A DNA stretch of 64,000 bases from the NCBI RefSeq assembly GCF_004010195.1, contig NC_057718.1:67296588-67360587 (forward strand), written 5' to 3'. The DNA comes from Chiloscyllium plagiosum. Its lineage: Eukaryota. Below the pieces are notes generated by a model. That model was given only the letters and a program-made list of their open reading frames with translations. It was not told where the DNA came from and made no database searches. How positions within the stretch are numbered: the stretch's first letter is position 1; each line of letters starts with the position of its first letter. Positions 8,470 through 59,204 of this stretch are shown here, in pieces. Made by a program: the position numbers and the translations under genes.

Positions 8470-9262
8470 CCACATAGGAATTAATAAAATAGGTATACCT
8501 GGCAATGAGGCACTGCTGAGAGAATTTGAGGTGTCAGGAGCCAAAATAAAAAGGAAAATGTGAAAAGGAATTCTCCACAAAACATATGAGCAGAAGTAGG
8601 CGAAAGTGGGTACTGCAGATGATGGAGATTAGAGTCAAGATTAGAGTGGTGCTGGAAAAGCACAATGGGTCAGGCAGCATCCAAAGAGCAGGGAAATTGG
8701 CGTTTTGGGCAAAAGCCCTTCATTAGGAGCAGAAGTAGGCTATTCGGCCCATTCAGTATGCCATTTGTTACCTGTTTACCAATCAAGGAGTTAGATGCAT
8801 TTGTAATAAAGATAACATAGTAGTCATGCAATATGTTAATGATTAGACTACTTACAGTGTGGAAACAGGCCCTTCGGCCCAACAAGTCCACACCAACCCA
8901 CAACCCACCCATACCCTTGCACCTTATACTATGGGCAATTTAGCATGGCCAATTCACCAGGTAACAAATGGCATACTGAATGGGCCGAATAGCCTACTTC
9001 TGCTCCTGATGAAGGGCTTTTGCCCAAAACGCCAATTTCCCTGCTCTTCGGATGCTGCCTGACCCACTGTGCTTTTCCAGCACCACTCTAATCTTGACTC
9101 TAATCTCCATCATCTGCAGTACCCACTTTCGCCTACTTCTGCTCATATGTTTTGTGGAGAATTCCTTTTCACATTTTCCTTTTTGTTTTGGCTCATGACA
9201 CCTCAAATTCTCTCAGCAGTGCCTCATTGCCAGGTATACCTATTTTATTAATTCCTATGTGG
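8470..9262. repeat. 305-bp inverted duplication (8470-8774 and 8958-9262)
   Basis: Direct reverse-complement comparison shows about 5 substitutions and a 183-bp spacer. Confidence 0.95.
8602..8726 (-). mobile_element. Short PLE-derived element
   Basis: 14-bp TSD GAGCAGAAGTAGGC at 8588-8601 and 8727-8740. Confidence 0.85.
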
Positions 9263-9401
9263 GAGGAAACTGGAGGAACCCCACGCAGACACGGGGAGAA
9301 TGTGCAAACTCCACACAGTCAGTCGCCTGAGGCGGGAATTGAATCCGAGTCTCTAGCGCTGTGAGGCAATAGTGCTAACCACTGTGCCACCGTGCCGCCC
9401 A
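8843..9401 (-). mobile_element. HE1-type SINE interrupted by an inverted copy of its flank
   Basis: SINE tail at 8843-8957 and head at 9263-9401 (reverse complement GGGCGGCACGGTGGCACAGTGGTTAGCAC). Confidence 0.88.
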
Positions 9402-11768
9402 CCAATGTTCATTGTTAATGTTAATGTTCATACTGACTGGAAAAACATAACTTGGAAGTGTGTCTAGTCATAGAATTTATAGAAAATAAATTTCTAGGTC
9501 ACTATGCAAGGAACATACAAGAAAAACATCTACTTTAGATCTAGGATTGTGCAAATAAGGTGAAAAAGGTAATTAATAATATCCATTGTACAAGAATCTC
9601 AAAGAATCGTCATAGATTGGGAACATTATTTATAAAGTATGAAACTGCTTTAGGTAAACCAGAAACAACAGTTTTAAATCCAAACAAAGCAAAGTACATA
9701 AGATTGAGAGGCTAGCTGGCTAAGGAATGTTGGGAAACTACATTAAAAGGTATGATAGTAAATGGATAATTTCTAGGATTTAAAGAACTAATATACAATA
9801 AATATGCATTCTTCCATAGCTCAAAAAAACACCCACAGAAAAGTGGTCTAACCATCTTGAACAAAAGCTGTTAAAGAAGATATTACATCAAAGAAGAGGA
9901 TTATAACATTGCCAAAAAAAATCAGAAGCCATAGATCATAAGGACTATGGAAGACCAAGAAATCAATAAGGAAAGAGAAATGAGATTTGACAGTAGACTA
10001 GCAAGAGATATAAAAGAACATTTCTATAGATACAAAAATTGTAACAGGTTAACAAAAGTAAATGTGGACCCATTGAAACTATAACATGAATGAAGAGTTC
10101 TGCAGACATTAAACCAGTACTTTGTCTTCACAGTGGGAGGCATAAATGGCATTGTAGAAATAATCAAAAATCAAGAGTGTCGTGGGAATGAGGAATTTAA
10201 AGAAGTCAGCATCAGTAAAGAAATATTATAGGATCTATGTGCAAGTCTGTCTGCATGCTCCCTTGAAAGTCAAGGGCCAACCATTAAGCTGAGGTAGCAC
10301 TCAGCAGGAGCACTACGTTAGATGAAAGCATCAAGATCTAAGTTCTGAAGTCCAAAAGCATTCATCTGATTAGCGGTCGATAATTGGTTGGTGAGTTTGA
10401 AGTTTCCCTGTCTTCTCTGAAGTAGGGCAGCAATCAAACTTGGTCCAGGAAAGTAGAGTGTTGTATTACATTCATCATTTATCTATTAAACTACTTCATG
10501 TAAGTACAAATAGTCATTTAATAAATACTTTGATTAAATAAAATAAGAATAGTCACAGAATCACAGAATTGTGACAGTACCACCTTGTGGACACCTTGTC
10601 ACCTTTTTAGGAAATAAAGTTTCAACTTAAAACAACAAAAGCCTAATCCAGGTACCGGATATCAGTCAGAAGACGCGCATTGGGAGCCATACCCCTGTCC
10701 TTACTTTCGTGGCCCTGCTCCCTCTCCCCATGACCACACACAAGAAAGTTCATCCCATTGGTTGGTCAACAACTCTTGCTGGCCAGGGATTCTGCCCCAT
10801 TTTGATTCTAGTGAACACCCACCAGTGTTCATGCCACTGCCTGATTGGCATAGGGCATGCATTCAGTGGGCTTCCTTAGACAAGGCAGCCTTGAAGTTTT
10901 GCATGCTCTGCAGCTGCATGCCAGATCCAAAACACCTGAACAAAGTTCCACCATGATCAGAATAAAGGTCTAAATAAAATGTAGGATCCAGAAGTACCAA
11001 TCGCTGGAATAATTCTCAGCACATGCAAATTGGCATAGGAGGAGATAGATCAGATGAATGAATACATACCTAAAGAGCTAGCCCAGAACTTTCCCATTTC
11101 AAATTAGACAGAAATGATCGTGGAATGGCAAAAAGAATTGCCACTGAGCAACACAGCCCAGCATCCCACTTCTATTTCTGCTCGATGCCATTTTTCCAAG
11201 GGTGGGAAATGTGAATAATCCTGTTCCTATTAAGGAATTAATTTACACAGTGGTAATTTAATTCAGAGTCCATTTTCAAAACAGTTTTGGATATTATTTG
11301 AGGCAACCAAGGCTCAGCAGCTGTAATGTATCAGTGCAGCTGCACAATGGTGGGGTGAGTTTACATAGTATTTTAAGTACTTTCAATTGTATTTGTGTTT
11401 GAAATTTAGACATCTGATGAGATTAGTGATTTAGATATCAAATTGTTTATTCGGGGGAATTTATGGATTCTTGGATGCAATCCAGCTCTTCAATGTCAGC
11501 ATGAACATTGTCAAGTGTTTATTACCATCTAAGTGTTTTTACCTTAACTCCTAACTGCCAAAGTCGCTTTCAGATCCACCTCTAGCCAATTATTGCCCTA
11601 AGGGCTGCAAAATCATGCTCTTTGGAGGCCTAAAGCTGGAAGTGAAAGTGCAAAAATAGCTCAGCCTTGATTCCCAGTTCCCACCAGCCATGGAAAATGT
11701 AATTCCTTAATGTGGAAAAGCGGCTTCCTTTTCTGTGATGTAGGTACCAATTCTGAGATAGAGAGGGG

Positions 11769-12600
11769 TGTAATGATGAGATGACCTTCTCCTGAATCAG
11801 AATGAAATCTGTGTCCTGCTAGAAAGTTTAAATAGGGCGGTCAAAAAGACTTGAAACTAGTCATGGGAAAGAGGGATCTATGAAAAATGTAGCATTTAAG
11901 GATTTTAACATTCATTTAGGACATTTTAGATATCACTGAAACACATTTCCAGAGTCACAGATAGTTGGAGAAAGAGAAATAGGAAAACCAGGAGTTTTTA
12001 GCTGTCTTGCAGGGAAGAAGACAAGAGCTGTTGAATATTTCTGTACAAAGAATGATCAAAAGATGTAATGGAGAGCTGAAGAAACAGAGAGTTTCTGTGT
12101 TGGGGAAGACTTGAGGAGCTCGGTAGAAGAATGTGAGTATTAATATGTAAGTGCAGCTGCATATGGATGTTTAAAAATCCATTAGAAGCATTTGCTTCAT
12201 AAAACTGAATAAGTTTAGAGATTGGTGAAGCTAGCTGTCTGTGAAAAGCTAGAATCTAAAGGTGGATGGACCCAGGGCCCAGGACAATGATCAACTAGAA
12301 AAGGTACAGTCGTTGAGACAATCTAGGATGGAATGATTCTTCAAAGGGAATTTCAAGGGAAGATCAGAAAAAGTGAACAATTGCAATATCTTGTGAAGTT
12401 TAATAAAATCTAATGACACATTGGGTCTGGGTTTAGGGCTGGTAATTCAAGAAATCCATGTGATCTATCATGAGCACATCTGCTGTTTGATGTACACTTT
12501 AGAGTACTTGATCAGTCTGTAGTTCATGTTTGCCATGTGTTAATTCTGGGTAGATGACAGGGAATGATAGTTCAGAATGGTCATTCAGTGTGTCAGAAAG
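11769..12600 (+). mobile_element. Possible old LTR
   Basis: The purine tract AGATAGAGAGGGG is followed by TGTAATG. The right end cannot be defined. Confidence 0.25.
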
Positions 12601-12684
12601 TCAGAAGTGATTTTCCACAGAATGATGCAAGTCTTACTTTGAAATCGCAAGTACAATTTCTAAATGCACAGATGATATTAAATT

Positions 12685-13015
12685 GGAAGGTCAGGCTGCA
12701 TCCGAAGAGCAGGAGAATCGACGTTTCAGAAATAAGCCCTTCAGCAGGAATGTGGACAGGGAAGGGAGCTGAGAGTTAAGTATGGGGGTGGCGGTGNNNN
12801 NNNNNNNNNNNNNNNNNNNNNNNNNNNNNNNNNNNNNNNNNNNNNNNNNNNNNNNNNNNNNNNNNNNNNNNNNNNNCTGGGATGAGGTGGGAGGCGGGGA
12901 GATTTGGAAACTAATGAAGTCGATGTTGATGCTGTGTGGTTGTAGGGTTCCAAGGTGGACGATGAGGCGCTCTTCCTCCAGTTGTCGGGTAGCTTTGATT
13001 TGGCATTGGAGGACA
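12685..13015 (-). mobile_element. PLE 3' fragment spanning an assembly gap
   Basis: Minus strand ATRQLEEERLIVHLGTLQPHSINIDF matches the C-terminus at 43612-43870. Degenerate hammerhead module at 12716-12750. Confidence 0.75.
12797..12876. other. Assembly gap (80 N)
   Basis: Run of N characters. Confidence 1.
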
Positions 13016-13101
13016 TGTGTCCCAGAGATGTTTATTCCCCAATTGAACTTCCTCCTATTTTTCTCTCATGTACCTCTACTACTATAATCATTTATATTTA
13101 T

Positions 13102-13417
13102 GGGTGGCATGGTGGCTCAGTGGTTAGCACTGTTGCTTCACAGCACCAGGGCCCCAGGTTTGATTCTAGCCTTGGGCAACTGTCTGTGTGGAGTTTACAC
13201 ATTCTTTCCATGTCTGCGTAGGTTTCCTCCGGGTGCTCCGGTTTCCTCCCACATTCCAAAGATATGCAGGTCAGGTGAATTGTCCATGCTAAATTGCCCA
13301 TAGTGTTCGGTGCATTAGTCAGAGGGAAATGGATCTGGGTGGGTTGCTCTTCGGAGGGTCGGTGTGGACTAGTTGGGCCGAAGGACCTGTTTCCACACTG
13401 TAGGGAATCTAATCTAA
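13102..13417 (+). mobile_element. HE1-type SINE
   Basis: GGTGGCTCAGTGGTTAGCACTG head, conserved core and TCTAA tail. Confidence 0.88.
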
Positions 13418-13739
13418 TTCATCTTCCTCAGATTTTCACCTGGTTTCCCCTTAAATATGTAGATACTTTTCACTTCAGCCACTCAGTGATAGCAAGTTTC
13501 ACATTCTTACCACCCTTTGGGTGAAGACATTTCTTCTGAATTTCCTTTTGGATTTCTTGGTGGCTATTTTATGTCAATAGCAGCAGTCAGTTAGCTAGAC
13601 AATTAGTTTGTGATGTGACATGTGATCTGACCAGCGTTTTATACAAATTTAAGGTAACTTCTTTACAATTCTATTTCTTTAGAAATGAATCCCAATGCTA
13701 GGCTTGCTTTTTATAAAAGTCTTATTAAAAGTTTTTCCA

Positions 13740-15570
13740 CCCAGTTCTTCCTGTTTATCTAGCAAGATTCTCCACTCAGACAGGCTGGCCTTTTTCTCCA
13801 CCAAGTGGTGAACCTGAATATCTAGGGGACAGAAATGTTCCAGGTTGGAATATTTGTAACATCATCCATTTCCCTACCTCATATTTAACTGGGTTCACCT
13901 TCCCATCAAAGTACACTTCCCTCTGCTCTTTTCTTTTTTACCATTCTGATGGCCATTACTTTGTGTGCAACTTGCACATTTTCTAATAGGATTTTCAGTT
14001 TTCCTATTGTAGAAGGTTTCGACCTTGGGCTCTGTTAAGTCTTATCCAATTAAAGATTTGATACCTCTCATGTCTGGTCATTAGAGCGTGGGAGTGAATC
14101 CAGTTGAACTGGAGAGTGAGTTCCTTATGAGCATGAGGATAAAGGATAAAACAACATTCCAGATTGAGGTGCCGCCAAATATATTCATCACTGCATGCCT
14201 TACCTGGCCTATGAAAAGGCTTCCCTGGTCTGATTCTTCATTGCAGGGAAGATTCCATCTGGTGAAAATTTGCTGAATTAGGATGTCTACTGCAACTTAG
14301 TGGTGTTCATTTGAGTGGGGAATGCTTCTACCCATTGTTAAATGTCCACAATGATCAGGATATAATTTTGTCCCCTTTATAGGGCATGAGAGGGCTGACA
14401 ACCAATACATTTAAATGTGGGGAGTGCTCTGTCAGAACGGTTAAGGGATTCAGGCAAATAATATCAGCATAATGTTGTACCGTTCAGAACATGGCTAGCA
14501 AGTGCTCCTCACACTTAAAGAAGCCCTGCTGTATTGGTGAAAGAGTCCAGAAGGCACAAGGTGCCAGTCTGAGATTACTGTGTCATCCCTGGGCCTGCCA
14601 GTGTGGCATCCATGACTGCAAGTTCCAAGGCAGAGGGAAGTTCTGGGTGAGGTACCGGTGCAGGACCCTGCAAACAGACCTGTTTTAATTCTGCAACAGC
14701 ATCATGTGCTATTTACTCAATTCCCACAGGACACTCCTTCAAGGAGGTTGAAGAGTGGGGCAGCTTTAAGTGTTGAAACCATGGATGTGGTTCTGACAGT
14801 CTCCCACTAAACCCAGAAAGAAACACAATGAGCTCACACCCCTGGGAGGCACAAACAGGTTATGGCCTCGATATGCTTCCATTCTATTCCAGTGTTTCCT
14901 TGAGTTGGCGCAGTCCTAAGAATGAGACCTGGGACCTTATGATTTGTGCCCTCTTGGGTTTAACTTTTAGTCCTAGGATGTGAGGAAGGTTAACAGTTAC
15001 TGTAACAGTGTCAAATGTTCAGTCCTTGTCTCTGTTTGCAGGAGGAGATTGTCCACGTACTGTACCAAGCAGTCCAATCAGGAAAACTGCTCTAACTCTT
15101 TAGCCAGCCTCTGGTAAAATATTGATGGAGAATTGTAAAATCCCTGGAACAAACAGGCCCATGTATTGCTCGCCCTGAAATATGAACGTGAATTTATATT
15201 GGCAGTGTGAGAGGAGGAGGATGAATCAAAATCCGTTACTAATGTCCAGCACAGTGAAATATTTTGCTCTTGGGCCTACCCCTTCATGGTTTTTGGACCA
15301 GTCACTGCTGTTGGTGATGTGATTGGGGCAGTTTTATTTAGTTCCCTGCAATCAACAGTGAGCCACCCAGAGCATTCCGGTTTCATAAACGGCCATATTG
15401 GCGAGTTATTAGTAGATGCTACAGGGCATAGGACTCCGTGTTTTAACAGTTGCTAATGACCTTAGCCACCTCCCCCTCTGACTACTTGTCTTTGTGGCTT
15501 TGGGTCTGGTCTGTCTATCACTACCTCACCCTGTATCCAGCCACACTGTGTTTATAATAGGTGAACACAC
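13740..15570 (-). mobile_element. pol: Decayed endogenous retrovirus-like pol (RT, connection region, integrase)
   Basis: Manual translation across frameshifts. RT: NNSPIWPFMKPECSGWLTVDCRELNK, KYFTVLDISNGF* (motif at 15229-15249), WACLFQGFYNSPSIF, LVQYVDNLLL (YVDN at 15048-15059), FLGLVGDCQNHIHGF. IN: YILIIVDI, WVEAFPT, IFTRWNLP..EESDQG (SDQG at 14222-14233), FLSPRYSG. Confidence 0.85.
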
Positions 15571-15571
15571 T

Positions 15572-15845
15572 TAGACCATAAGACCATAGGAGCAGAAATT
15601 TGGTCATTCCGACTATCAAGTCTTCTCTGCCATTTGATCATGGCTGATCGGTTTTTCAACCCCATTTTCCCATTTTCTCCCGAAAACTTTTTATCCCCTT
15701 GGCAATCAAGAACTTATCTATCTCTGTTTTAAATATACTCAATGACCTGACCTCCACAGCCTTCTGTGGCAATGAATTCCACAGTTTCACCATTCTCTGA
15801 CTAAAGAGATTTCTCCTTATCTCTGTTTTAAAGGGTCTGTCCTTT
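15572..15845 (-). mobile_element. CR1-type 3' tail fragment
   Basis: AGACCATAAGACCATAGGAGCAGAA terminus. Related pieces at 48350-48665 and 60545-60690. Confidence 0.6.
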
Positions 15846-16739
15846 ATTTTCTATAAGGGAATAAAACAAAAGTCAAAAACAGCATTAGAGTTCTGTAATT
15901 TAAAAAAAATTAACTGCAATGATGTGCAAAGCATTTGATCAAGCCAAGATTGTAAGCATCTAGAATTACTCAGAATTGGTGGATCAAAAAGCTATCTGGT
16001 AGCAAACAATTTACGTTCTTTTGAAAAACGACATGTTTAGCTATAACAGCTAACTTCCATTGCATAACAATAGTTACAAGTGGTCTCTATAACGTAGGGA
16101 AATGCATGGTAAACCTCATAAAAACCTGATGCGAGAGTAAAGTAGAAATGGTATGTACTAATAGAAAATCTGTCAGCCAATTGAGAAATGTAAAGCACAT
16201 TTTGCAGTCTGTCTAACCTCAGTCTCTGTTCTATTTCTTAGGGAGACAGTTGGTCATTTCTGACTATTAGTCAGTGTGGTAATGTAACACCAGACTCACT
16301 AATCTCTTTCCCATTTTCAATTGCTGCTGACACTCTACTTCAATAGCTTTTTCTCTGCACTGGCTGTTCTTTGTCAAGTAACCCACCTGAAGAAATGGAG
16401 AGTTGCAGGGATAGAAAACTATCAAATTCAAAATGGCAATAGATTTATTTGTTCGAATTTATACTGAGCTGTGGAAAGTCATTGAAAATCTCCAGTTATA
16501 TTTAAGTGCAAAGGCTAGCATCAGTATTTTTTATGATCACTTACACAGCAGTTTTTGTAAAGGAAGGTTAATTTCAATAGTGTGATGCAAATATATTTCT
16601 TAAATTACATTTTGTTTGTCCTTACATTTCCACACAAAATAATGGAGATTTCAACAATTCAAAAGTTGGGTAAGATAGTAACAACTTTGTTGTTGATGCA
16701 TTCTGATGAGAGACGCCATTTACTTTTTATTAACCTATT

Positions 16740-16850
16740 GTTCCAATCAACTTGTTGAGAGATGTTGTTACACACATCTGGAGCAAATGGCACTTGATTT
16801 CAGTTCTCTTGGTCCAGGGATAGGGGCACTACAACTGCGTCACAAGAGGG
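16740..16850 (-). mobile_element. Short tRNA-like SINE family (also ~29165-29285, 33232-33340, 61960-62037)
   Basis: The copies share a GTGCAG..GTAGTGTCC...GGTT(C/T)AAGT head and an ..AACATCTCTGA(G/A)CAGGTTGATT tail. Confidence 0.5.
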
Positions 16851-17554
16851 CATAGGTGCCATTTAATCAGAGTTTGCAGATTGGGCTCAGATGGCCATTA
16901 GCAGATGGTTCAGAGTTAATCTCCCACATTCTGCTGTAAGCATGAAAATCATAGGAGTAGCACATGCTATGCCACTTCCAGTTTCTTTGAAATTTTTTGT
17001 TCATCGATCTTAAAAATATTGGACATGGGGGTAAGAGGTTGTTTGAATGGCAATCAAAGATTGTCCAGTTAGGGAAAAAAAATTTCATTTGCTTTCCAAT
17101 TGGCAGTGGGAAGGGGAAAATTCTGTTTGATGAATGAGTTATGTGACCAATGATTGGAGCAGGGGTAGAATGGGGCTGATGAAGGCCGGAGATAATATCG
17201 TGAAATTAGAATTGGCAAGTTTGGGCAGCTGGAGGCTTCATGAGTTGTTGAAAATTGAGGCCCATTGAAGTAACAAAATGTCAAAGTCATTTGAACACAG
17301 AATGCAGATCTCCCTCTCAATGTGCCTAGTGGGACTGGTCTCCCACAGCTACTGAATCTAAATTTAATGGGGCACTTAAGTGCAGACAATCGAGTCACAA
17401 GTGTAAATTCAAAACTTGGTGGAAAAACAACAGCTCATGTAGTTTTTGTGGTCAGAGAAACAGAGTTAACCATATGTATTTTTGCCATGACCATAAGAAA
17501 CAGCACCAATCCTGTTTTCATGTCAGAAAGCCCCGTATGGTACCCTGCCCATTT

Positions 17555-18575
17555 AGAGTCAGAGAGTCATACAGCATGGAAACAGACTCTTTGGTCCAAC
17601 TTGTCCATACCAACCAGGTTTTTTAAACTAATCTTATTTGCCTGCATTTGCCCATATCCCTCTAAATTTTTCCTATTCATGTACCTGTCCAAATGTTTTT
17701 TACATGTCTTTACTCTACCTGCATCTACCATTTCCTCTGTCAATTCATTCCATATACACACAGTCCTCTATGTGAAAAAGCTGCCTCTCAGGTTCCTTTT
17801 AAATCTTTACCCTCTCAACGTAAACTTATGGCTTCTAGTTTTGAACTCCCCTACATTTGCTATTAACAATAGAAATTTGCAATAGACCTTTGCTATTAAT
17901 CTTATCTATGCCTCTCCTATTCTCCAGGGAAAAAGGTCCCAGCCAAATTCAGCCTCTCCTTATAACTCAAATGCTCCAGTTCCAGTAACATCTTTGTAAG
18001 TCTTTTCTGTATCCTTTCCAATGTAATAATATCCTTCCTATATCAGGGCAACTTGAACTGTACACAGTACTCCAAAAGTGGTCTCACCAATATCATGTAC
18101 AACTGCAGCATAACGTCCCAATGCCTATACTCAATTTTCTGACCAATGAAGGCAAGTGTGCCAAATTCTTTCTTCACAACCATGTCTCCCTCTGATACTA
18201 GAAACTATGTTTTTGAATGCCTAGGTCTCTCTGCTCGACAACACTCCCCAGTACCCCTCCAGTTGCTATGTAAGCCCTCTCCTGGTTTGCCTTACCGAAA
18301 TGCAACGCCTCGCATTTATTTAAATTAAACTCCACGTGCCACTCTTCAGCCTATTAGCCCATCTGGTCAAGATCTTATGTATTCTTAGAGAACCTTCTTT
18401 ACCAACCACTATATCACCAATTTTTGTGTCATCTGCAAACATACAAGCCATACTTCCTACATTCTCATCCAAATCATTCATTTTAATGACAAACAAGAGT
18501 GCACCACCACCAGCCCTGTGATTTACCACTCATCATAGGCCTCCAGTCTGAAAAACAACCCTCTACCACCACCCA
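17555..18575 (-). mobile_element. CR1 LINE RT and 3' end
   Basis: NDLDENVGSMACMFADDTKIG and WNELTEEMVDAG..KKHLDRYM. Confidence 0.88.
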
Positions 18576-19099
18576 TAGAGTCATTGGGATGTGGTGAAAG
18601 TGAGGACTGCAGATGTTGGAGATTAGAGTCGAGAATATGGTACTGGAAAAGCACAACAGGTCAGCCAGCATCCAAGGAGCAGGAGAATCTATGTTTCTCC
18701 TGCTCAATTTTTCAGCACCACACTCATAACTCATTGGAATGTGAGACAGGTTTTGACACAGTCACTGAGGCTGTTGGTTCGCCTCAGGGAGAAAATCTGC
18801 TGATTTTGCCCAAGACCTCCGCAGTGCCAGAGGAAACCAGAATAACATTAGCAAACTACTGGCTGAGAACTTGGGACAGGGCTGCTCCTCGCTTTATCAT
18901 GCTGATATAGTTTGGAAACTTGAGGTCGTTTGGGAAAGGGGAATGCTCCTTTTCTGAGAGGCAGAAAAGGTCACTTCATCGTGCAGCAAAGGCACTACTC
19001 TGTTCAGCTACATTTCCTTCCACATCCTCTCCCTTCTTGTTTCTCACCTTTTTCTCCTGCTCCTCACTGGATGAGCTGTCTTTATTCGGCCTGTCACCA

Positions 19100-19950
19100 T
19101 CTTCAAAATGCATACCTATCTAGAAATCCATGCATGGACAGCACAGTAGCCCATTATAATAATCAAGGCCCTTCCAAGTGGGTATTAGAGAGTCCAGTAC
19201 ATTAACCAGCCTGACTGGTCCAGACTCTGGAATCACACCCTCTGAAGCTCAATGCACTAATAAGGGTATCCCATTTGCCTCTGCCATACAGGAATGAATC
19301 ACCATGCTTTCTCGGATGCACTGTGCTTGTTAAAGTGAAAATCTGATTCAGCATGGACTTGGAGAGAATAAAGAAGTCATAGCAACTTCCAGGGAGGTGA
19401 ATTTTCACATGGACGAACCTGTTGTGATGTTCACTGGTCAGATGAAGGAAACTGACGTTCTTTCTCTTGATAAATCTGAGCTGTTAATCACTTCATGCCT
19501 TGATTCTTTCACGGCTGCAATCAATGAAACGCACTGTCTGGATGGTGGTGAAACTAGAGATTTGAGTCCGCAGCAGGCAGTATTGTCAAAAGATGAGTGA
19601 AACATCCAACAACAGTAAATTGTGAGAGATGAGATGAACAAATGCTTGTGAGAAGCAATGCAGCTGTGGATCTGATCCTTGAGATGAGACAGATGTGCAA
19701 GGTCTTTATGACTTTGACCACTGGCAGAGTGTGGTAACAGGTGCTGTAAGGTTTTCAATGGTAAGGGCACAAATGTATCTGACATCAGCCTGGAGAATCA
19801 CAGTCTCCTCTGGCACTGCATCTTTGTTGTCTCCAAATAGCTCTGGAATCAGCAGCAGATACTGTGTTGAGAGAGTATGGCCTTCATGTCCCTCTTGTCC
19901 TTCCTTTCTCTCCCATGCTGTCCTGCCGTTCATGGTTCCATCCTCCCTAT
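19100..19950 (-). mobile_element. PIF/Harbinger DDE transposase (HARBI1-like) fossil
   Basis: PGSCYDFFILSKS, then RV*FQSLDQSG and L*YPLGRALIIIMGYCAVH. These resemble the PGS.HD..IL, KMRFRCLDRSG and LQY.P...IIVACC.LHN motifs. Confidence 0.75.
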
Positions 19951-20494: not shown

Positions 20495-21152
20495 GAAATA
20501 CTGGGGATAATTAGACACTGTGTTTTCATATTTCAAAGAAGACCATGGAAAGATTAACTAGTTTTACTTAGGAAGTGTAAGGAAGACTGAGCCACATGCC
20601 TGGATATACAGTTAATTGGATGTGATATGGATTTAGGTGAATCAGTGCCAATAGCAATCAGTCCAGAAAAACATGGAAAGCAGAAAAGTCACTTGCTTGA
20701 TCCTAGCCAAAGCAGCTGGAATTTACTTGTATTGTTAACCCAGAAGGATTAACTGATTTGGCATAGGAAACAGAAAGGTAAATATAATCATGAAAACAGA
20801 TTTACACCCAATTCCTCGGTCAGAAGATTGTATCAATTGGGTTGGCAGTGCCTCATCTATTTCTAGAATTGATCTAATGAAGGTGGACTGGAAAGTGCCA
20901 TTAGCATCAAGGACTAACAAGATATCTTTGTTGCACCAAATGGATTATATCAATGTGAATTTTAAAATGCCCATCTACATTCAAAAGACATATGAATGAA
21001 GTCATAACTGAAGTACCTAATATGTAGTTTATTTAGATGATGTTATAATATACAGTAAGGCGTGGGAAGAACGAGCACAGCAATTAAAGAACCTGTTTAA
21101 GCGATTGCAATTAGCTGGCTTAATGATAAATTTGGCCAAATGTGAATTTATC
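20495..21152 (+). mobile_element. Gypsy RT fossil
   Basis: KTDLHPIPRSEDCINWVGSASSISRIDLMKVDWKVPL, YLDDVIIYS and LFKRLQLAGLMINLAKCEF. Confidence 0.8.
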
Positions 21153-21161
21153 TATGACATA

Positions 21162-21475
21162 AGGGTAGTATGGTTGTTCAGTGGTTAGCACTGCTACCTC
21201 ACAGTCTCAGGGACCCAGGTTCAATTCCAACCTCGGGTGACTGTGTGGAGTTTGCACATTCTCCCTATGTCTGTGTGGGTTTCCTCCCATCCAAAGATGT
21301 TCAGTTTGGGTAGATTGGTCATGTTAAATTGTCCATAGTATCCAGGGTGATGCAGGTTAGGTGGAATTGCCATGGGAAATACAGGGTTACAGACCTAGGT
21401 GCGGGGGTGGTCTGGATGGCATGCCCTTTGGAGGGTTGAATGATGCTGAGTCCACACAGTAGAAATTCTATGATG
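21162..21475 (+). mobile_element. HE1-type SINE, older copy
   Basis: CAGTGGTTAGCACTGCTACCTCACAG and GGTTCAATTCC. Confidence 0.8.
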
Positions 21476-30221: not shown

Positions 30222-31470
30222 TTTTTAATTTCAAAAATATACTTTATTCATAAAATAATTTTGATATCTATACAATTGGTGATGCCATACATACATATAC
30301 ATTACATTTCTTTACATACAGAGATCGGAATTAATCATTCGTATATACAAGTCTGTACATTGACCATCCAGGTATTTAGCTGAGGTGTCAGCGGGGCCCG
30401 ATTACTGAGTGGGCCTCCTGTTCTTCTTAGGCAGGCAGACCTTACATGGTGGTCTTTCCCCACCGTGCTTTGGCGGCAGCTGCCCCAAGCTTCAGCGAAT
30501 CCCTCAACACGTAGTCCTGGACCTTGGAATGTGCCAGACCTTGGAATGTCTCAGTTGGGGTCAACTCCTTCAGTTGGAAGACCAAAACCCAAACATTACA
30601 AACCAGGCATAAAATTCAGTCTGACTGAATTGATGATCCTCCAGGCACAGTTGATGTTTGTCTCGGTGTGCGTCCTGGGGAACAGACCGTAGAGCATGGA
30701 GTCCCGCGTCACAGAGCTTCTCGGACGAACCTCGACAAACACCACTGCATTCCTCTCCAGACTTCCTTTGCATCGGCACATTCCAGAAGGAGATGTGTGA
30801 CAGTCTGGTCCCCTCCACAGCCGCTTCGGGGGCAGCATGCAGTGTGGCAGAGAGTCCGGGCATGCATAATGGATCTCACAGGCAGAGCCCTTCTCACCAC
30901 CAGCCAAGCCATGTCTTGGTGCTTGTTGGAAAGTTCTGGCGATGAGGCATTCTGCCAAATGACTTTGACAGTCTGCCCAGGAAACGGCTCGACAGGATCC
31001 GCCCTCTCCTTTTCCCGAAGGGTCTCAAGGACACTATGTGCTGACCACTTCCTGATGGACTTGTGGTCAAAGGTGTTTTTCTTCATAAATTTCTCCATGA
31101 AGGACAGGTGATACAGAACGGTCCAACTACTTGAAGCATTCCGTGGCAGCGGGGCCAGGCCTATCCTTCGCAACACCAGGGACAGGTAGAACCTCAGTAC
31201 ATAGTGACACTTGGTGTTTGCGTACCAGGGATCCACGCATAGCTTGATGTAGCCACACACAAAGGTGGCCATCAGGGTGAGGGTGGCATTGGGTGTGTTT
31301 TGTTTGCCCAGATCTTTATACATCGAGTCCCTTTGGACCCGTTCCATCTTTGATCTCCACATAAAGTGGAAGTTGGCCTGGGTGACTGCGGTGGCACAAG
31401 TTCTGGAAATAGGCCAGACCCGTGCCACATAAAAGAGCAATGACAGTGCCTCACACCTGATGACCAGGTT
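30222..31470 (-). mobile_element. Tx1/L1-clade LINE 3' portion
   Basis: The 243-aa ORF contains LPVRSIMHARTLCHTACCPRSGCGGDQTVTHLLLEC (post-RT Cys/His motif). 3' end ATGAATAAAGTATATTTT followed by poly-A. Confidence 0.85.
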
Positions 31471-31751
31471 TTTTATAGAAGAAAGACGAGTGTAGTAAAT
31501 GTCACAGTGGCTGAGAAAGAACTTATCGAGTAACTGTGGAGTGAGGGGGTTAACAATACCTTTTAGCTAAGAGTAACTGTTGAGCATGTGTGTAAGGAAT
31601 TGTAGAAAACAGATCACATGGAAATGGAGACTAGCTTTCCAGATAATATACTCTCTTAATATCCCTTGCATAAAGCTATGTTTAATAAAATCTGTTAACA
31701 TTCATCTACCTGAGTGTGAATCTGATTTTACAATCGTAACAGATCGTAATT

Positions 31752-41042: not shown

Positions 41043-41441
41043 CTGGTTTGAGCCAGCCCAAGCCAATGGCTGGGACTCAGGTAACTTCAGTTCTCAAGCT
41101 TGCTGTTTTTATGTGTGAGCAGCCCCTGGTCAACGGCAGAATCCTGCCTAACAATAAGTCCTCACTGGCAGTATTAATTGGCCTAATTTATCTTTACCTG
41201 AAAAGATTTAGCCCTACAGAAACTTAAGTGATAATTTCACCTGGTTTGAGCCAGCCCAAGCCAATGTCTGGGACTCAGGTAACTTCAGTTCTCAAGCTTG
41301 CTGTTTTTATGTGTGAGCAGCCCCTGGTCAACAGCAGAATCCTGCCTAACAATAAGTCCTCACTGGCAGTATTAATTGGCCTAATTTATCTTTACCTGAA
41401 AAGATTTAGCCCTACAGAAACTTAAGTGATAATTTCACCTG
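41043..41441 (+). repeat. 198-bp tandem duplication
   Basis: 41043-41240 versus 41241-41438, two substitutions seen, CTG at the junctions. Confidence 0.97.
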
Positions 41442-48925: not shown

Positions 48926-49620
48926 GTACTAAAGTTCTTCCTCTCCCCAGCATTATGAAGAATAGCACTGGCCTGAGAGGCACAGGACACTTAAAATAGT
49001 TAGTCCATTTCATGTCACCTGTTCATGGAAAAATCTGCAAAGCTTTTGACCACAAGTCCATCAGGTTGTTGTTAGCACCTAGTGTCCTTGAGACCCTGCA
49101 AGAAAAGAAGAGGGTGGCTCCTGTCGCATGGTTCTCTCAGCAGACTGTCAAAGTCATTTGGCTGAATGTCTCATCACCAAAGCTTTCCAGCAAGCACCAG
49201 AACATGGCTTGGCTGGTGGTGAGAAGTGTAATACCTGCAAGATCCTTCAGGAATGCCCAGACACTCTGTGTCACCGCATGCTGCCCTTGAAGCGATTACA
49301 GAAGGGATGAGACTTACATGTTCCTACTATAGCATGCTTTGCAAAGAAAGCCAGGAGAGAGATGAAGTGTTTTTTGTCAACTTGGTGAAAGATGCTCGTT
49401 GGTCTGTCCAAAGCTTGTTGGTCTTCCAGTACAAGGAGCTGACCTCATCTGAATGGTGCACACAGGTGCCTTCCAAGATGCAGGACTTGTGTAAGGGAGA
49501 CACTGAAGCTTAGGACAGCTGCGGTCAAGGTGCAGTGTGGAAAGATCACCATCTAAGGTCTTTTAGCCAATGTACAATGGGGGTCCGCTCAGTTATCGAA
49601 CTCTACCAGTACTTAAAATT
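48926..49620 (+). mobile_element. Tx1-type LINE fragment, 3' UTR resumes at ~52720-52907
   Basis: FDHKSIR..SVLETLQEK..KVIWLNVSSPKLSSKHQNMAWLVVR, homologous to 30709-31440. Confidence 0.8.
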
Positions 49621-49654
49621 TTGAGGAAGTTTGTTGTTCAGGTTAAGATTCTGA

Positions 49655-52600
49655 TGTAGCTTTGCTTGCTGAGCTGGAAGGATTTGTTTCAGATGTTTTG
49701 TCACAATGCTAGGTAACATCATCAGTGAGCCTCCGGATGAAGCACTGGTGGCATGGCCTAATTTTATTTGTGTTTAGGTTTCCTTGGGTTGATGATGTCA
49801 TTTCCTGTGATGTCATTTCTCATGGTGATGTCATTTCTTGTTATTTTTCTCAGGGGCAGTAAATAGGATCCAAGTCAATGTGCTTGTTGAATGCCATGCT
49901 TCTCGGAATTCTTGCATGTGTCTCTGTTTGGCTTGTCCTGGGATGGATGTGTTGGCCCAGTCAAAGTGGTGTCCTTTTTCATCTGTATGTAAAGATACCA
50001 GTGAGAGTGGGTCATGTCTTTTTGTGGCTAATTGATATTCATGTATCCTGGTGGCTAGTTTTCTGCCTGTTTGTCCAATGTAGTGTTAGTTACAGTTCTT
50101 GCATGGTACTTTGTAAATGACATTAGTTTTGCTTGTTGTCTGTACAGGATCTTTCAAGTCCATTTAGTGTGTTGGTGGGTTTGTGGGCTACCATGAGGTC
50201 TGAGTAGCGTGGCAGTCATTTCCGAGAGTCATATCCTACCTGCAGGCAAAGGATGCTTGACAGTCATTTTAAATAAAGAGACTACATTGAGAAAGTGAAT
50301 GCACTGCTTGCAGATACCAATACTTACCAATAAGTGGCGATAGAACTTACCCCACAACTAGGCAACCGAATCACAGTCCTACTCAAAAAACCAGAAATCT
50401 GGAGAAATAAATAAGACCGACTTCCAAAAAATGAAACCAGATGGATCCAACACTCCACCCTCCTATGGATTACCCAAAATTCATAAACCAGGAGATCCCC
50501 TCAGACACATAGCCTCGCTACCTCGAACACCAACTTACAGGTTGGCCAAAGAGCTACATCAAAGACTAAAACACTTAGTAGATGACTCACGCCACTCCAT
50601 CCACTCCACCCAATAATTCCTGAAGACTATCAAAGACACCAAGATAGAAGAGGATGAAACAATGGTCTCCTTTGATGTAACAGCCCTGTTCACATCCATC
50701 AACATCAACCTGGCCAAGGAAACACTGACTATTCTATTAGAAGATCCAAAGACACATATACCAAACACTACCAACTTCATCAGCACAAACAATATCGTCA
50801 AGCTGGTGGACCTATGTCCTTTTACTCACTTCATCCTCAACAACAAAACCAATGGACAAACCAGTGGAACACCCATTGGATCTACGATATCAGGATTCTT
50901 TGCGGAGGCAGTAATGCAGAGACTCGAACAAACAGCTCTGCCATCCATCCAACCCAAACTTTGGGTCTGCTACGTGGATGACACCTTTGTTATCATAAAA
51001 TGAAACCTTCATGACCATCACCAATACCCTTACTGGCATAAAATTCACTAAAGAGGAGGAAAACAACAATAAACTCCCATTCTTAGATGTCGCAGTAGAG
51101 CAAACAGCCAATGGGGAACTTCAAGCCAGTGTCTACAGGAAAACAACACGTATGGACCAAATACTGTACTACAGAAGCAATCATCCCAACATCTACAAAA
51201 GAAATTGCATTAAAACATTATTTCAATGAGCCACCAAACTGCAGCAGAGGTGCTATTTGGAGACTTACCCCACAAAGGCAGCAGAAGCAGCAGCAGTCTT
51301 CTTGTTGGTGTACAGTCCAACTGCCCGGAGAGGAGGCAGGCAGTGCTGGACAGGGGTGGGGGGGGCGCAGTGCTGGACGTGGGTGGGTGGATGGTGTTGG
51401 ACTGGGTTGAGGGGCAGGCGGGGGGCAGTGTTGGACAGTTGGTGGGGGGCAGTGTTGGACGGGACTGGGGGAGAGCGGTGGGCGGTGTTGGATAGGGACA
51501 GTGTCAGGGGGGGCGGTGTTGAACAGCTGCGGTCAAGGTGCAGTGCAGAAAGACCACCATCTAAGGGCTTTTGTCCAAAGTACAATGGGGGTCTGCTCAG
51601 TTATCGAACTCTACCAGTATTTAAAATTTTGAGAAAGTTTGTTGTTCGGGTTGAATGTAGGTTTGCTTGCTGAGCTGGAAGGATTGGTTTCAAATGTTTT
51701 GTATTTATGTGTTTAGGTTTCCTTGGGTTGGTGATGTTATTTCCTGAGGTGATGTCATTCTCGTGGTGATGTCATTTCCTGTTCTTTTTCTCGGGGGGGT
51801 AAATAGGATCCAAGTCAATGTGTTTATTGATAGAGTTGGGGGGGTGCGCTATGTGCTGCTGCAGTCTTCTGAATGGGGAGCAGACTTTAAAAACTCCGAG
51901 GCCCAGAGGAAAGGCATTTAATCGATTAACCGAATAATCGATTACCCGAACGAAATACTGTCCGCCCATCTTGTTTGGATAATCGAGGCTCGCCTGTATT
52001 CAAAGAGAACGGATACCCAGAGAACACAGTCCACCAATTTCTCAGCAACAAACCCAAACAAGCAGACAAAACACGTCCAGAAACCCTAACCACTCTCCCC
52101 TACATCAAAGACATCTCGGAAATGACTGCCAGACTACTCAGACCTCTTGGCATCATAGTAACCCACAAACCTACTAAAACAGCAGCTAATGAACTTGAAA
52201 GAGCCTGTACAGACAACAAGCAAAACTAATGTCATTTACAAAATACCATGCAAGAACTGTAACAAACACTACATTGGATAAACGGGCAGAAAACTCGCTA
52301 CCAGGAGAAATAACATCAACTAGCCACAAAAAGAAATGACCCATTCTCACTAGTATCTTTACATACAGATAAGGAAGAACACCACTTCGACTAGGACAAC
52401 ACATCCATCCCAGGATAAGCCAAAGAGAGAAGTGTAAGAATTCCAAGAAGCATGGCATTCCAACCAGAACTCTATCAACAAACACATTGACTTGGATCCC
52501 ATTTACCACCCCCTCAGAAAAATAACAGGAAATTACATTACCACAAGAAATGACGTCACCACAGGAAATGATGTCATCAACCCAAGGAAACCTAAACACA

Positions 52601-57059: not shown

Positions 57060-58560
57060 AATATTTCATTGCAACTATTATCAAATATAAACTAAGTGTT
57101 TAAGAGCCAGCAATAATCCCAAAGTTTATTTCTCCACAGTAGAGTACTTGCTCTGAAATTGTTTTTAATTTCTTGAAGTATCACACTGAGTTCCATACTC
57201 CTACCTCATCATCGTGCAATAAGATTGTATCTATTCCAAAGTCACTTTCATCAATTGTCATTTTTAAAGGTTTGGTAAAGTCAGCAGTAGCCAACACCAG
57301 CTCATTAATTCCGATTGCCTTCTGCTTTTGAAAGGTTGCTTGGCATTCAAACTTGTCAAAAGTTTGCTAATGTTAGACACAAATTTCAATGAAACCCAAT
57401 CTTAAAAATCTAATGCCTTGTTTAATTTTGGGAATAGGAAATTTCATCATAGCCTTCATTTTCACTGTTCTTGACAACACTTGCCTTTCTCCTACAATAT
57501 AGAATCACTACAGTATTGAAGCAGGACATTCAGCCCATCAAGTCCACAACAACCCTCTGAACAGACCCATTCTCCTAACCTATCCCTATAACCACACATT
57601 TACCATGACAAATCCATCTAGCCTGCCCATCCTTGCACACTGTGGGGATAGTCAACCCACCAAACCTGCACATCTTTTGTCTGTAGGAGGAAACTGGAGT
57701 ATGTGGAGAAAACCCACACAGCCACAGGGAGAATGTGCAAACCCCACGCACACAGTTGCCCAAGAGTGAAATTGTACCTGGGTCTTTGGCACTGAAGCAG
57801 CAGTGCTAACCACTGAGCCATGTGCCACTCTTATGTCACAGGTAAATACACAATTGGCCAGATTTGTCACTAAGCCAGCTAATTGCATTTGCTTAAACAG
57901 GGCCTCTAATTGCTTTACTTGTTCTTCCCATGTTTTACTATATGTATTACTTCATCATCTAAATAAACTATTATCAATCAAGTCATAACTGAAGTAGTGA
58001 ATATGTCTGGAATGCTGAGCATTTTTAAGTACACATTTCATGCAACAAAGGCAAATCTCTTTACCCTTGATGCTAATAGTACTTTCCAGTACACCTTCAA
58101 TAGATCAACTCTAGAAATAAATGATGCACTGCCAGCCTTATCAATACAATCTCCTGACTGAGGAATTGGGTGCAAATCCATTTTCATGACTACATTTACC
58201 TTCCTGTAACCTACACAAAATCAATTGATCCTTCTGGTTTCGGACTTATAACTACAAGTAAACTCCAGCCACTTTGGCTAGGTTCAGCATTGTTTTTCTG
58301 GACTGAACTGATAAGGATATTGTTTTATTGACACTGATTCACCTATACCAACATCACATCCAATTAACACTATGTCCAGGCATATGGCTCAGACTGCCTT
58401 ACCGTTCCTAAGTAAACTTATTTGATTTCTCCGTTGTTTTCATATAGAAGAAGAACACAGTGTCTAACAGTCCCCAGTATTTCCACATTGGCTAGTGGAA
58501 TTTTAGCAAGCTTGCTGTATGACTGTCTACCTGTCTTCTACCTCACTCTTAATGGCTCTC
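57060..58560 (-). mobile_element. Gypsy pol fossil (RT and RNase H), interrupted by a SINE
   Basis: 58020-58490 is the reverse-complement homologue of 20495-20940. VLATADFTKPLK and KYSTVEK occur at ~57130-57300. Confidence 0.7.
57500..57828 (-). mobile_element. HE1-type SINE, older copy
   Basis: Reverse complement reads GGCACATGGCTCAGTGGTTAGCACTGCTGC. Confidence 0.8.
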
Positions 58561-59204
58561 ATCTTCCACTATCTCGATTTCATAGCAAAAGATTAATTCA
58601 AGGGGACTAAATCCAGTAGATTCAACAAGGAATCTCTGGTAGCAAATAATAAGAGCTTCACCCTTTTGGCCCAATCCTGTGGGTATTCATGACACTATGC
58701 TGTAATCATGGCTTTGACAATTTTATGGAAACTCACCAAAGCTCCCTATTTTTGTGGATGATGTGTGACTGATTTCAACTGTTTAATAGCCAAACTGCAG
58801 ATTATGTCCTGGAAAACTTTAGACATAAAGTTAGAATGCTGGTCAGATTGTAGTTCAATTGGTAGGCCAGTGAGGTCTCCCCAGATGGGCAAGGATGCAG
58901 ATTGGCAAGCTGCATCATGGAGGCAGTCTGTTTATTTATCTAACTAAAGTTCCAAATAGTATAAGAGGACTAATTTCAGACTTGAGTCTCCTTGTTGTGT
59001 AGGGTCACCACTGAGGCCACCAGCTTAATGAAAATATCCTTCTTTATCTTCCAGTATGGTCTGAAAGGATGTCTAAAGATCTAATGGAATGAGGGCACAA
59101 GCAATGGATATATTAATTAACAGTTAATTGAGTGTGAGTTGAATTGGTGAAACTTCCCTCTAATTGACCTTCAGAGTGAGATTTGAATACAGGCGCAGGG
59201 ATTT

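Follow-up and report, generated by a model that had tools for sequence, protein, structure and literature searches.

The window analysed here, a 64,000-nucleotide stretch of Chiloscyllium plagiosum contig NC_057718.1, carries on its minus strand, at 15565-13790, a broken retroviral pol gene. This gene is likely to be a dead, internally deleted fragment of an endogenous retrovirus (ERV) from the snakehead retrovirus (SnRV)-like (clade Huo) branch, inert today. The element is a retrovirus and lies outside Ty3/Gypsy, and it probably represents an unnamed family of a deep retroviral branch already known from a cartilaginous fish. SnRV-like is the published name of this neighbourhood and its best label, rather than a clade recovered in our trees.

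A broken pol gene spread over three frames

In a three-frame translation of the minus strand, the reverse transcriptase (RT) motifs are found as NSPIWP..KP...W.LTVD.RELNK near 15410-15350, LDISNGF at 15249-15226, which is followed by a stop, F.FQGEQY near 15185-15165, QGFYNSP near 15145 and QYVDN at 15062-15048, and the integrase motifs WVEAFPT and SDQG lie at 14334 and 14233. The motifs are distributed across all three frames, and the ORF list contains no frame of at least 90 aa over 13740-15570. The original prediction, which had reported a pol with these RT and integrase motifs that was missing from the ORF track, is borne out in both respects.

Frameshift-aware alignment was performed with two intact relatives as references, P0002 from Xenopus tropicalis and P0010 from Aquarana catesbeiana. 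The alignment spans 15568-13842, about 560 codons at 38-39% identity, and contains 13-15 frameshifts and 10-13 stops (13 of each against P0002; 15 and 10, respectively, against P0010). One of the three minus frames matches Pfam RVT_1 (E=2.1e-07), 206 out of 1.84 billion proteins match at E<=0.001 in an exhaustive search (best E=2.1e-23), and the frameshift-aware identity to the unnamed protein P0006 is 54.5% over 286 aa, which places the fossil far above chance. A single broken frame gave 0 matches among 155 candidates in a word-seeded protein search and no match when searched against viral contigs, and an Rfam search of the window also gave no match.

Domain layout and internal deletions

The features of the locus are listed in Table 1, and the domain order is RT, tether, deletion and integrase. 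The 5' end of the RT is truncated, and no protease is attached to it. The RT retains its first catalytic Asp (15244) and also the leading Asp of the YVDD box (15051), which here reads YVDN. The tether scores 104 compared with at most 40 for shuffled sequences, and its match to Pfam RT_RNaseH is weak (E=0.18).

Table 1. Features of the pol fossil and of the adjoining repeats, in window coordinates
Feature	Position	Strand	Evidence
Reverse transcriptase (fingers, palm, thumb), broken	14715..15565	-	89/198 and 24/56 residues identical to P0002
Tether (degenerate Ty3-like RNase H), dual-RNase-H type	14400..14714	-	38/104 identical to P0002
Junction of large internal deletion, about 370-395 codons	14400..14420	-	Unmatched: P0002 residues 541-913, P0010 residues 541-935
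Integrase core and C-terminal part, broken	13790..14400	-	40/110 and 19/67 identical to P0002
High-copy LINE 3' end adjoining the truncated RT 5' end	15570..15860	-	tblastx matches to repeats elsewhere in the window, best E=6.6e-11
Old diverged LINE piece 3' of the fossil, at the expected env position	13420..13740	-	Score 53 vs 30 shuffles <=35, LINE-like start of P0043
SINE, family D5	13100-13418		Follows the 13420..13740 LINE piece

The large deletion, which measures 373 residues against P0002 and 395 against P0010, removes the end of the tether, the entire RNase H and the integrase zinc finger, as judged from the Pfam domain limits on P0002. The intact relatives P0002 and P0170 have a tether plus an RNase H according to Pfam; in the window, the tether is kept and the RNase H is deleted. 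This deletion, overlooked in the original prediction, is spanned by a single contig per run in three sequencing runs. When three relatives were used as queries for the deleted RNase H and zinc finger segment, the scores at 9000-13740 and 15560-19500 were within the shuffle range. Near 14174, a further loss of about 34 codons has taken away the catalytic Glu of the integrase. The integrase alignment stops at 13842-13848, and the final 50 nt were judged by eye. On its sequence, the element is incapable of replication.

Flanking sequence

The repeat that adjoins the RT at 15570-15860 reaches a contig depth of thousands to more than 100,000, and the LINE piece at 13420-13740 has no tblastx match elsewhere in the window. 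We take both LINE pieces to be CR1-like, an assignment that is weak for 13420-13740.

On the flanks, the protease/gag ends of six relatives and six candidate env transmembrane regions score within the shuffle range, and the flank self-comparison reveals no LTR-like match. SnRV gag and env give nothing credible against the window, and none of the six minus frames of 15600-19500 and 10000-12790 contains any Pfam family. The reported absence of gag, env and LTRs is therefore upheld within the flank stretches covered. The 3' end of the fossil lies 900 nt from an assembly gap (80 N, 12797-12876), which limits the env and LTR search on that side, and loss of env and LTRs is indistinguishable from native absence at this locus alone. 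Since gag, env, the primer site and LTRs are absent from the locus, they provide no confirmation of the SnRV-like label.

Phylogenetic placement

RT domains were taken from 283 sequences, and three trees were built: tree 1 (101 rows) by a quick method only, and tree 2 (52 rows, RT) and tree 3 (44 rows, RT plus tether) by a careful method. Near-duplicates, most Gypsy rows, four long-branch class II rows and P0080, which was mislabelled as ERV-L, were removed between the tree sets. The group labels were assigned in this analysis; those of the ERV-L/S, gamma/epsilon, class II and Gypsy rows are provisional assignments from motifs. The foamy rows are 15 viral contigs of 11.6-13.2 kb that were found via a motif from solved foamy RTs. 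The lokiretrovirus and fish foamy-like rows were labelled by motifs from the supplement of PMC7947760, and the SnRV row P0014, which is 99% identical to L007, has the SnRV motifs printed in the same supplement. P0170 or P0002 served as the guide for the read-through of the window, and this choice may bias it slightly toward their clade; scores for which each reference chose its own frames gave an unchanged ranking.

The window pol is sister to P0006 in all three trees, with support of 100/99 in both careful trees, and the pair nests with frog, coelacanth and unnamed elements in one clade (96 in tree 1; 86/81 for RT; 95/96 for RT plus tether). In addition to P0006, this clade holds pol proteins of Xenopus tropicalis, Latimeria, Aquarana and Pyxicephalus, which carry "NYNRIN-like" labels, and RT identity to the window within it is 44-62%. 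Several of these relatives are intact protease-RT-tether-RNase H-integrase frames, whereas the window copy is deleted and broken. The Gypsy, lokiretrovirus, foamy plus foamy-like, ERV-L/S and gamma/epsilon rows each form a clade of their own without the window in both careful trees. The RT thus groups with the retroviruses, outside Metaviridae, and of the earlier proposal the old ERV of a deep lineage stands, but the emphasis on foamy viruses and lokiretroviruses does not. When P0006 was used as a query against metagenomes, six loci at 28-33% identity were obtained, the contig of P0006 itself not being among them.

RT identity to the window is 62% over 175 columns for P0006, 44-50% for coelacanth and frog pol and 39% for SnRV, which is the closest named and classified virus, the other named groups reaching at most 35% (gamma/epsilon, 31-35%; lokiretroviruses, 32-34%; foamy viruses, 29-34%; Gypsy, 22-33%; ERV-L/S, 27-32%; fish foamy-like, 23-29%). 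The frameshift-aware scores give the same ranking, with 301 for SnRV compared with at most 254 for the other named groups. SnRV (P0014, L007) also shares the RT motif set of the window (LDISNGFW, PQGF..SP, QYVDD) and has the dual RNase H layout, but it is not sister to the window in the trees and its tether is more degenerate. It falls outside the window's clade in all three trees; its position is not fixed by RT alone, and on RT plus tether it groups with gamma/epsilon and other fish and shark lineages (92/87). Yet forcing SnRV into the window's clade is not rejected by the AU test (p=0.26 and p=0.205), and SnRV-like is therefore a label and not a demonstrated clade. A Huo-like group that includes ERV-L is borderline in the same test (p=0.055).

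Two other candidate identities were rejected. The window has QYVD where the ERV-L/S clade has a YIDD box, and the ERV-L/S rows group at 100/100 without the window, which excludes ERV-L and XtERV-S, an ERV-L-like element with a YIDD box and a dUTPase (PMC8278194). Membership in gamma/epsilon (class I) is likewise rejected, as the class I rows group at 100/98 without the window in the RT tree.

Alternative placements

The window and its relatives from frogs, coelacanth and probably sharks might instead form a deep lineage of their own that branched after the lokiretroviruses and before foamy viruses, ERV-L, SnRV and gamma/epsilon, with the SnRV-like elements forming a grade; we regard this as a possible but unlikely arrangement. 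On RT plus tether, the remaining non-loki retroviruses in the sample group to the exclusion of the window's clade and of two small pairs next to it, but the support of 84/86 falls under the star threshold of the tool, that tree has no class II rows, and the RT-only backbone does not resolve the branching. The tethers of P0002 and P0170 match Pfam RT_RNaseH_2 at about 1e-25, compared with 6e-12 for the SnRV-type P0014; a slow-evolving tether, however, would itself draw the clade rootward, and monophyly with SnRV is not rejected by the AU test, as described above.

A foamy-like element (clade Tu), as in elephant shark and catshark, is very improbable. D..NGFW, QGF.NSP and YVDD are likenesses to foamy viruses and to the fish and shark foamy-like ERVs, the latter already published from those two hosts (PMC5512871, PMC10699275), and among solved structures the foamy virus RTs match best (E=8e-12, compared with 3.5e-10 for MLV). 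No match in that ranking is labelled as an SnRV-like RT, so it says nothing on the SnRV-like alternative. The foamy and fish foamy-like rows, with shark foamy-like sequences left out, form a 100/99 clade without the window, at 23-34% RT identity to it, and their grouping with the window is rejected on the 52-row set (AU p=0.01).

There is very little to recommend the element as the first lokiretrovirus of a cartilaginous fish. NSPIWP, LT(V/I)D.R.LNK and a Gypsy-like tether are common to both, but lokiretroviruses have PFGY.NSP and IYVDD (PMC7947760), which the window lacks, their rows form a separate clade at 100/100, and the AU test on the 52-row set rejects the grouping (p=0.0019). Lokiretroviruses are further marked by a paramyxovirus-F-like env and an optional smc gene, and no env was found at the window locus. 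In the loki screen, none of the three Orectolobiformes genomes is positive (PMC7947760). The foamy- and lokiretrovirus-like emphasis of the original description is misplaced: the RT motifs are specific to neither group, and SnRV also has LDISNGFW, PQGF..SP and QYVDD.

A Ty3/Gypsy retrotransposon having just one RNase H, for which the tether would be the genuine domain, is scarcely credible: the window does show RT, one Gypsy-like RNase H domain and integrase in that order, and database labels of the relatives read "Gypsy retrotransposon integrase-like" or "NYNRIN-like", but the Gypsy rows split off at 100/99 (RT) and 100/100 (RT plus tether), the relatives have a second RNase H, and the missing integrase zinc finger indicates that the layout results from deletion and is not native.

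Copies, shared locus and age

At least 20 of the 24 listed runs, which bear three organism labels and come from seven studies, contain part of the stretch, and no RNA dataset is listed among those that do. In one poly(A) single-cell RNA run, for which about 2 in 100 of the reads were sampled, none lies on 13606-15477, a negative of little weight. The RT and integrase cores are matched at 85% or more by 3-5 contigs per DNA run, which indicates that a few related copies exist; position 14391, beside the junction, is covered by only one contig per run.

The insertion, its flank and the deletion are identical in layout under the two other organism labels. Four runs were compared at the locus. In organism B, one contig covers 13397-15029 with 41 differences in 1636 nt (2.5%), and a second covers 15042-15609 with 18 differences in 567; in organism C, a contig covers 13396-15396 with 74 differences in 2002 (3.7%). 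Two of these contigs are long and run across both the left flank and the large deletion, which argues that insertion and deletion predate the host splits, and because they show only 3-5 gaps each, most breaks are shared between the hosts. An insertion common to three organisms at about 2.5-3.7% divergence marks the fossil as old.

At assumed shark substitution rates of 0.5e-9 (PMC10699275) or 2.2e-10 (PMC4422223), the divergence of 3.7% corresponds to a minimum age of about 37 or 84 million years, respectively; these ages presuppose a shark host, in keeping with the shark-like look of the repeats. From the number of stops, 0.14-0.22 changes per site can be estimated, about tenfold the length of the branch to organism C; this estimate is a rough upper guide, since some stops may be misframed and some of the damage may be older than the insertion. 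A bolder joint proposal, that the element and P0006 are an unnamed earliest-branching family after the lokiretroviruses, distinct from SnRV and having the tether that has degenerated least, and that the shared insertion is well over 100 million years old and could serve as a dated reference for calibrating the deep evolution of retroviruses in cartilaginous fish, is in our judgement improbable.

Other elements in the window and among the relatives

A second LTR-type pol fossil is present on the minus strand at 57148-58919, with the integrase at 58919-58629, the RT at 58324-57754 and the RNase H at 57501-57148. The integrase precedes RT and RNase H, which is the Gmr1-type Gypsy order (Gmr order as in PMC4131045). 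On the plus strand, a Gypsy-type RT fragment lies at 20609-21242 with the motifs IDL.K..W at 20868 and YLDD at 21030 (RVT_1 E=4.6e-08), in agreement with the Gypsy RT first reported for the window. Its start matches 58065-58240 in inverted orientation, at 84% over 176 nt, which suggests that the two elements are one family.

Four further features were observed. At 8470-9262 there is a near-perfect inverted repeat with 305-nt arms, 98% complementary and spaced by 183 nt, that is made of short interspersed repeats, and at 41043-41438 a tandem duplication of 198 nt, 99% identical, is either recent or an assembly artefact. Direct repeats (130 nt, 92%) and inverted repeats (124 and 119 nt) surround an RT-like YVDD at 50971 within 49515-52430; we assume that this element may be Penelope- or DIRS-like. 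A 285-aa open frame on the minus strand at 30709-31566 is presumably the C-terminal part of an L1/Tx1-type LINE ORF2.

Among the database relatives, P0338, a member of the P0181 cluster from the shark Mustelus asterias, belongs to a deep pol lineage nearer to gamma/epsilon on RT plus tether. This lineage falls apart from the window's clade, so sharks have more than one deep pol lineage. P0195 stands for an NCBI cluster that has no name, comprises 3937 members and retains an intact pol; this large and probably young ERV family is, together with the spotted gar protein P0040, sister to the gamma/epsilon rows. The database label of P0297 is a Vagococcus metagenome bin; in the tree this protein falls among the fish foamy-like ERVs, and it is likely host DNA inside the bin.

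Discussion

The SnRV-like reading can be set out as a sequence of events. A retrovirus with a normal protease-RT-tether-RNase H-integrase pol, like that of the intact relatives, would have integrated into the germ line of a shared ancestor; the RNase H and part of the integrase would have been lost before the split of the three hosts, and the ends of the element may have been lost among LINE insertions, with neutral drift since.

The branch is represented in print. Clade Huo is related to SnRV and is described as present in all major vertebrate lineages (PMC6001957); in the coelacanth, SnRV-like elements are the major ERV class and perhaps an ancestral branch (PMC4977317, citing Hayward 2015), and about nine SnRV-like copies are given for Silurana (PMC4131045). 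In the elephant shark, CmiERV lineage I has been grouped with SnRV (PMC4422223). By eye, this lineage has NSPIWP, LDISNGFWS, LPQGFHNSP and a tether plus RNase H, and motifs read in this way, tree placement aside, suggest a link between it and the window. CmiERV scaffold 2 contains short RT and RNase H motifs common to P0002, P0012 and P0169, which were noted by eye and then checked, and the CmiERV env shows gamma-type motifs by eye (PMC4422223).

As a complete provirus (PMC4422223), CmiERV lineage I has the LTRs, gag and env that are missing from the window copy. Additionally, CmiERV has the TPACAP motif of P0002, P0012 and P0169, and the absence of TPACAP from the window makes this copy look, in a comparison by eye, like a different family. 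A described shark ERV thus accounts for the branch, but apparently not for the family. No report of this family was found in the literature searched, although supplements of large ERV screens may include such elements; among the matches listed for bamboo sharks, epaulette sharks and elasmobranchs there is no ERV title, which does not imply absence from print.

With this fossil, a deep branch known before from a chimaera, coelacanth and frogs gains one more family, in decayed form. The insertion, common to three species, sets a minimum age for the branch in this host lineage. The intact relatives bear on whether the SnRV-like elements form a single clade or a basal retroviral grade, a question to which the broken copy contributes little beyond the intact frog and coelacanth proteins.
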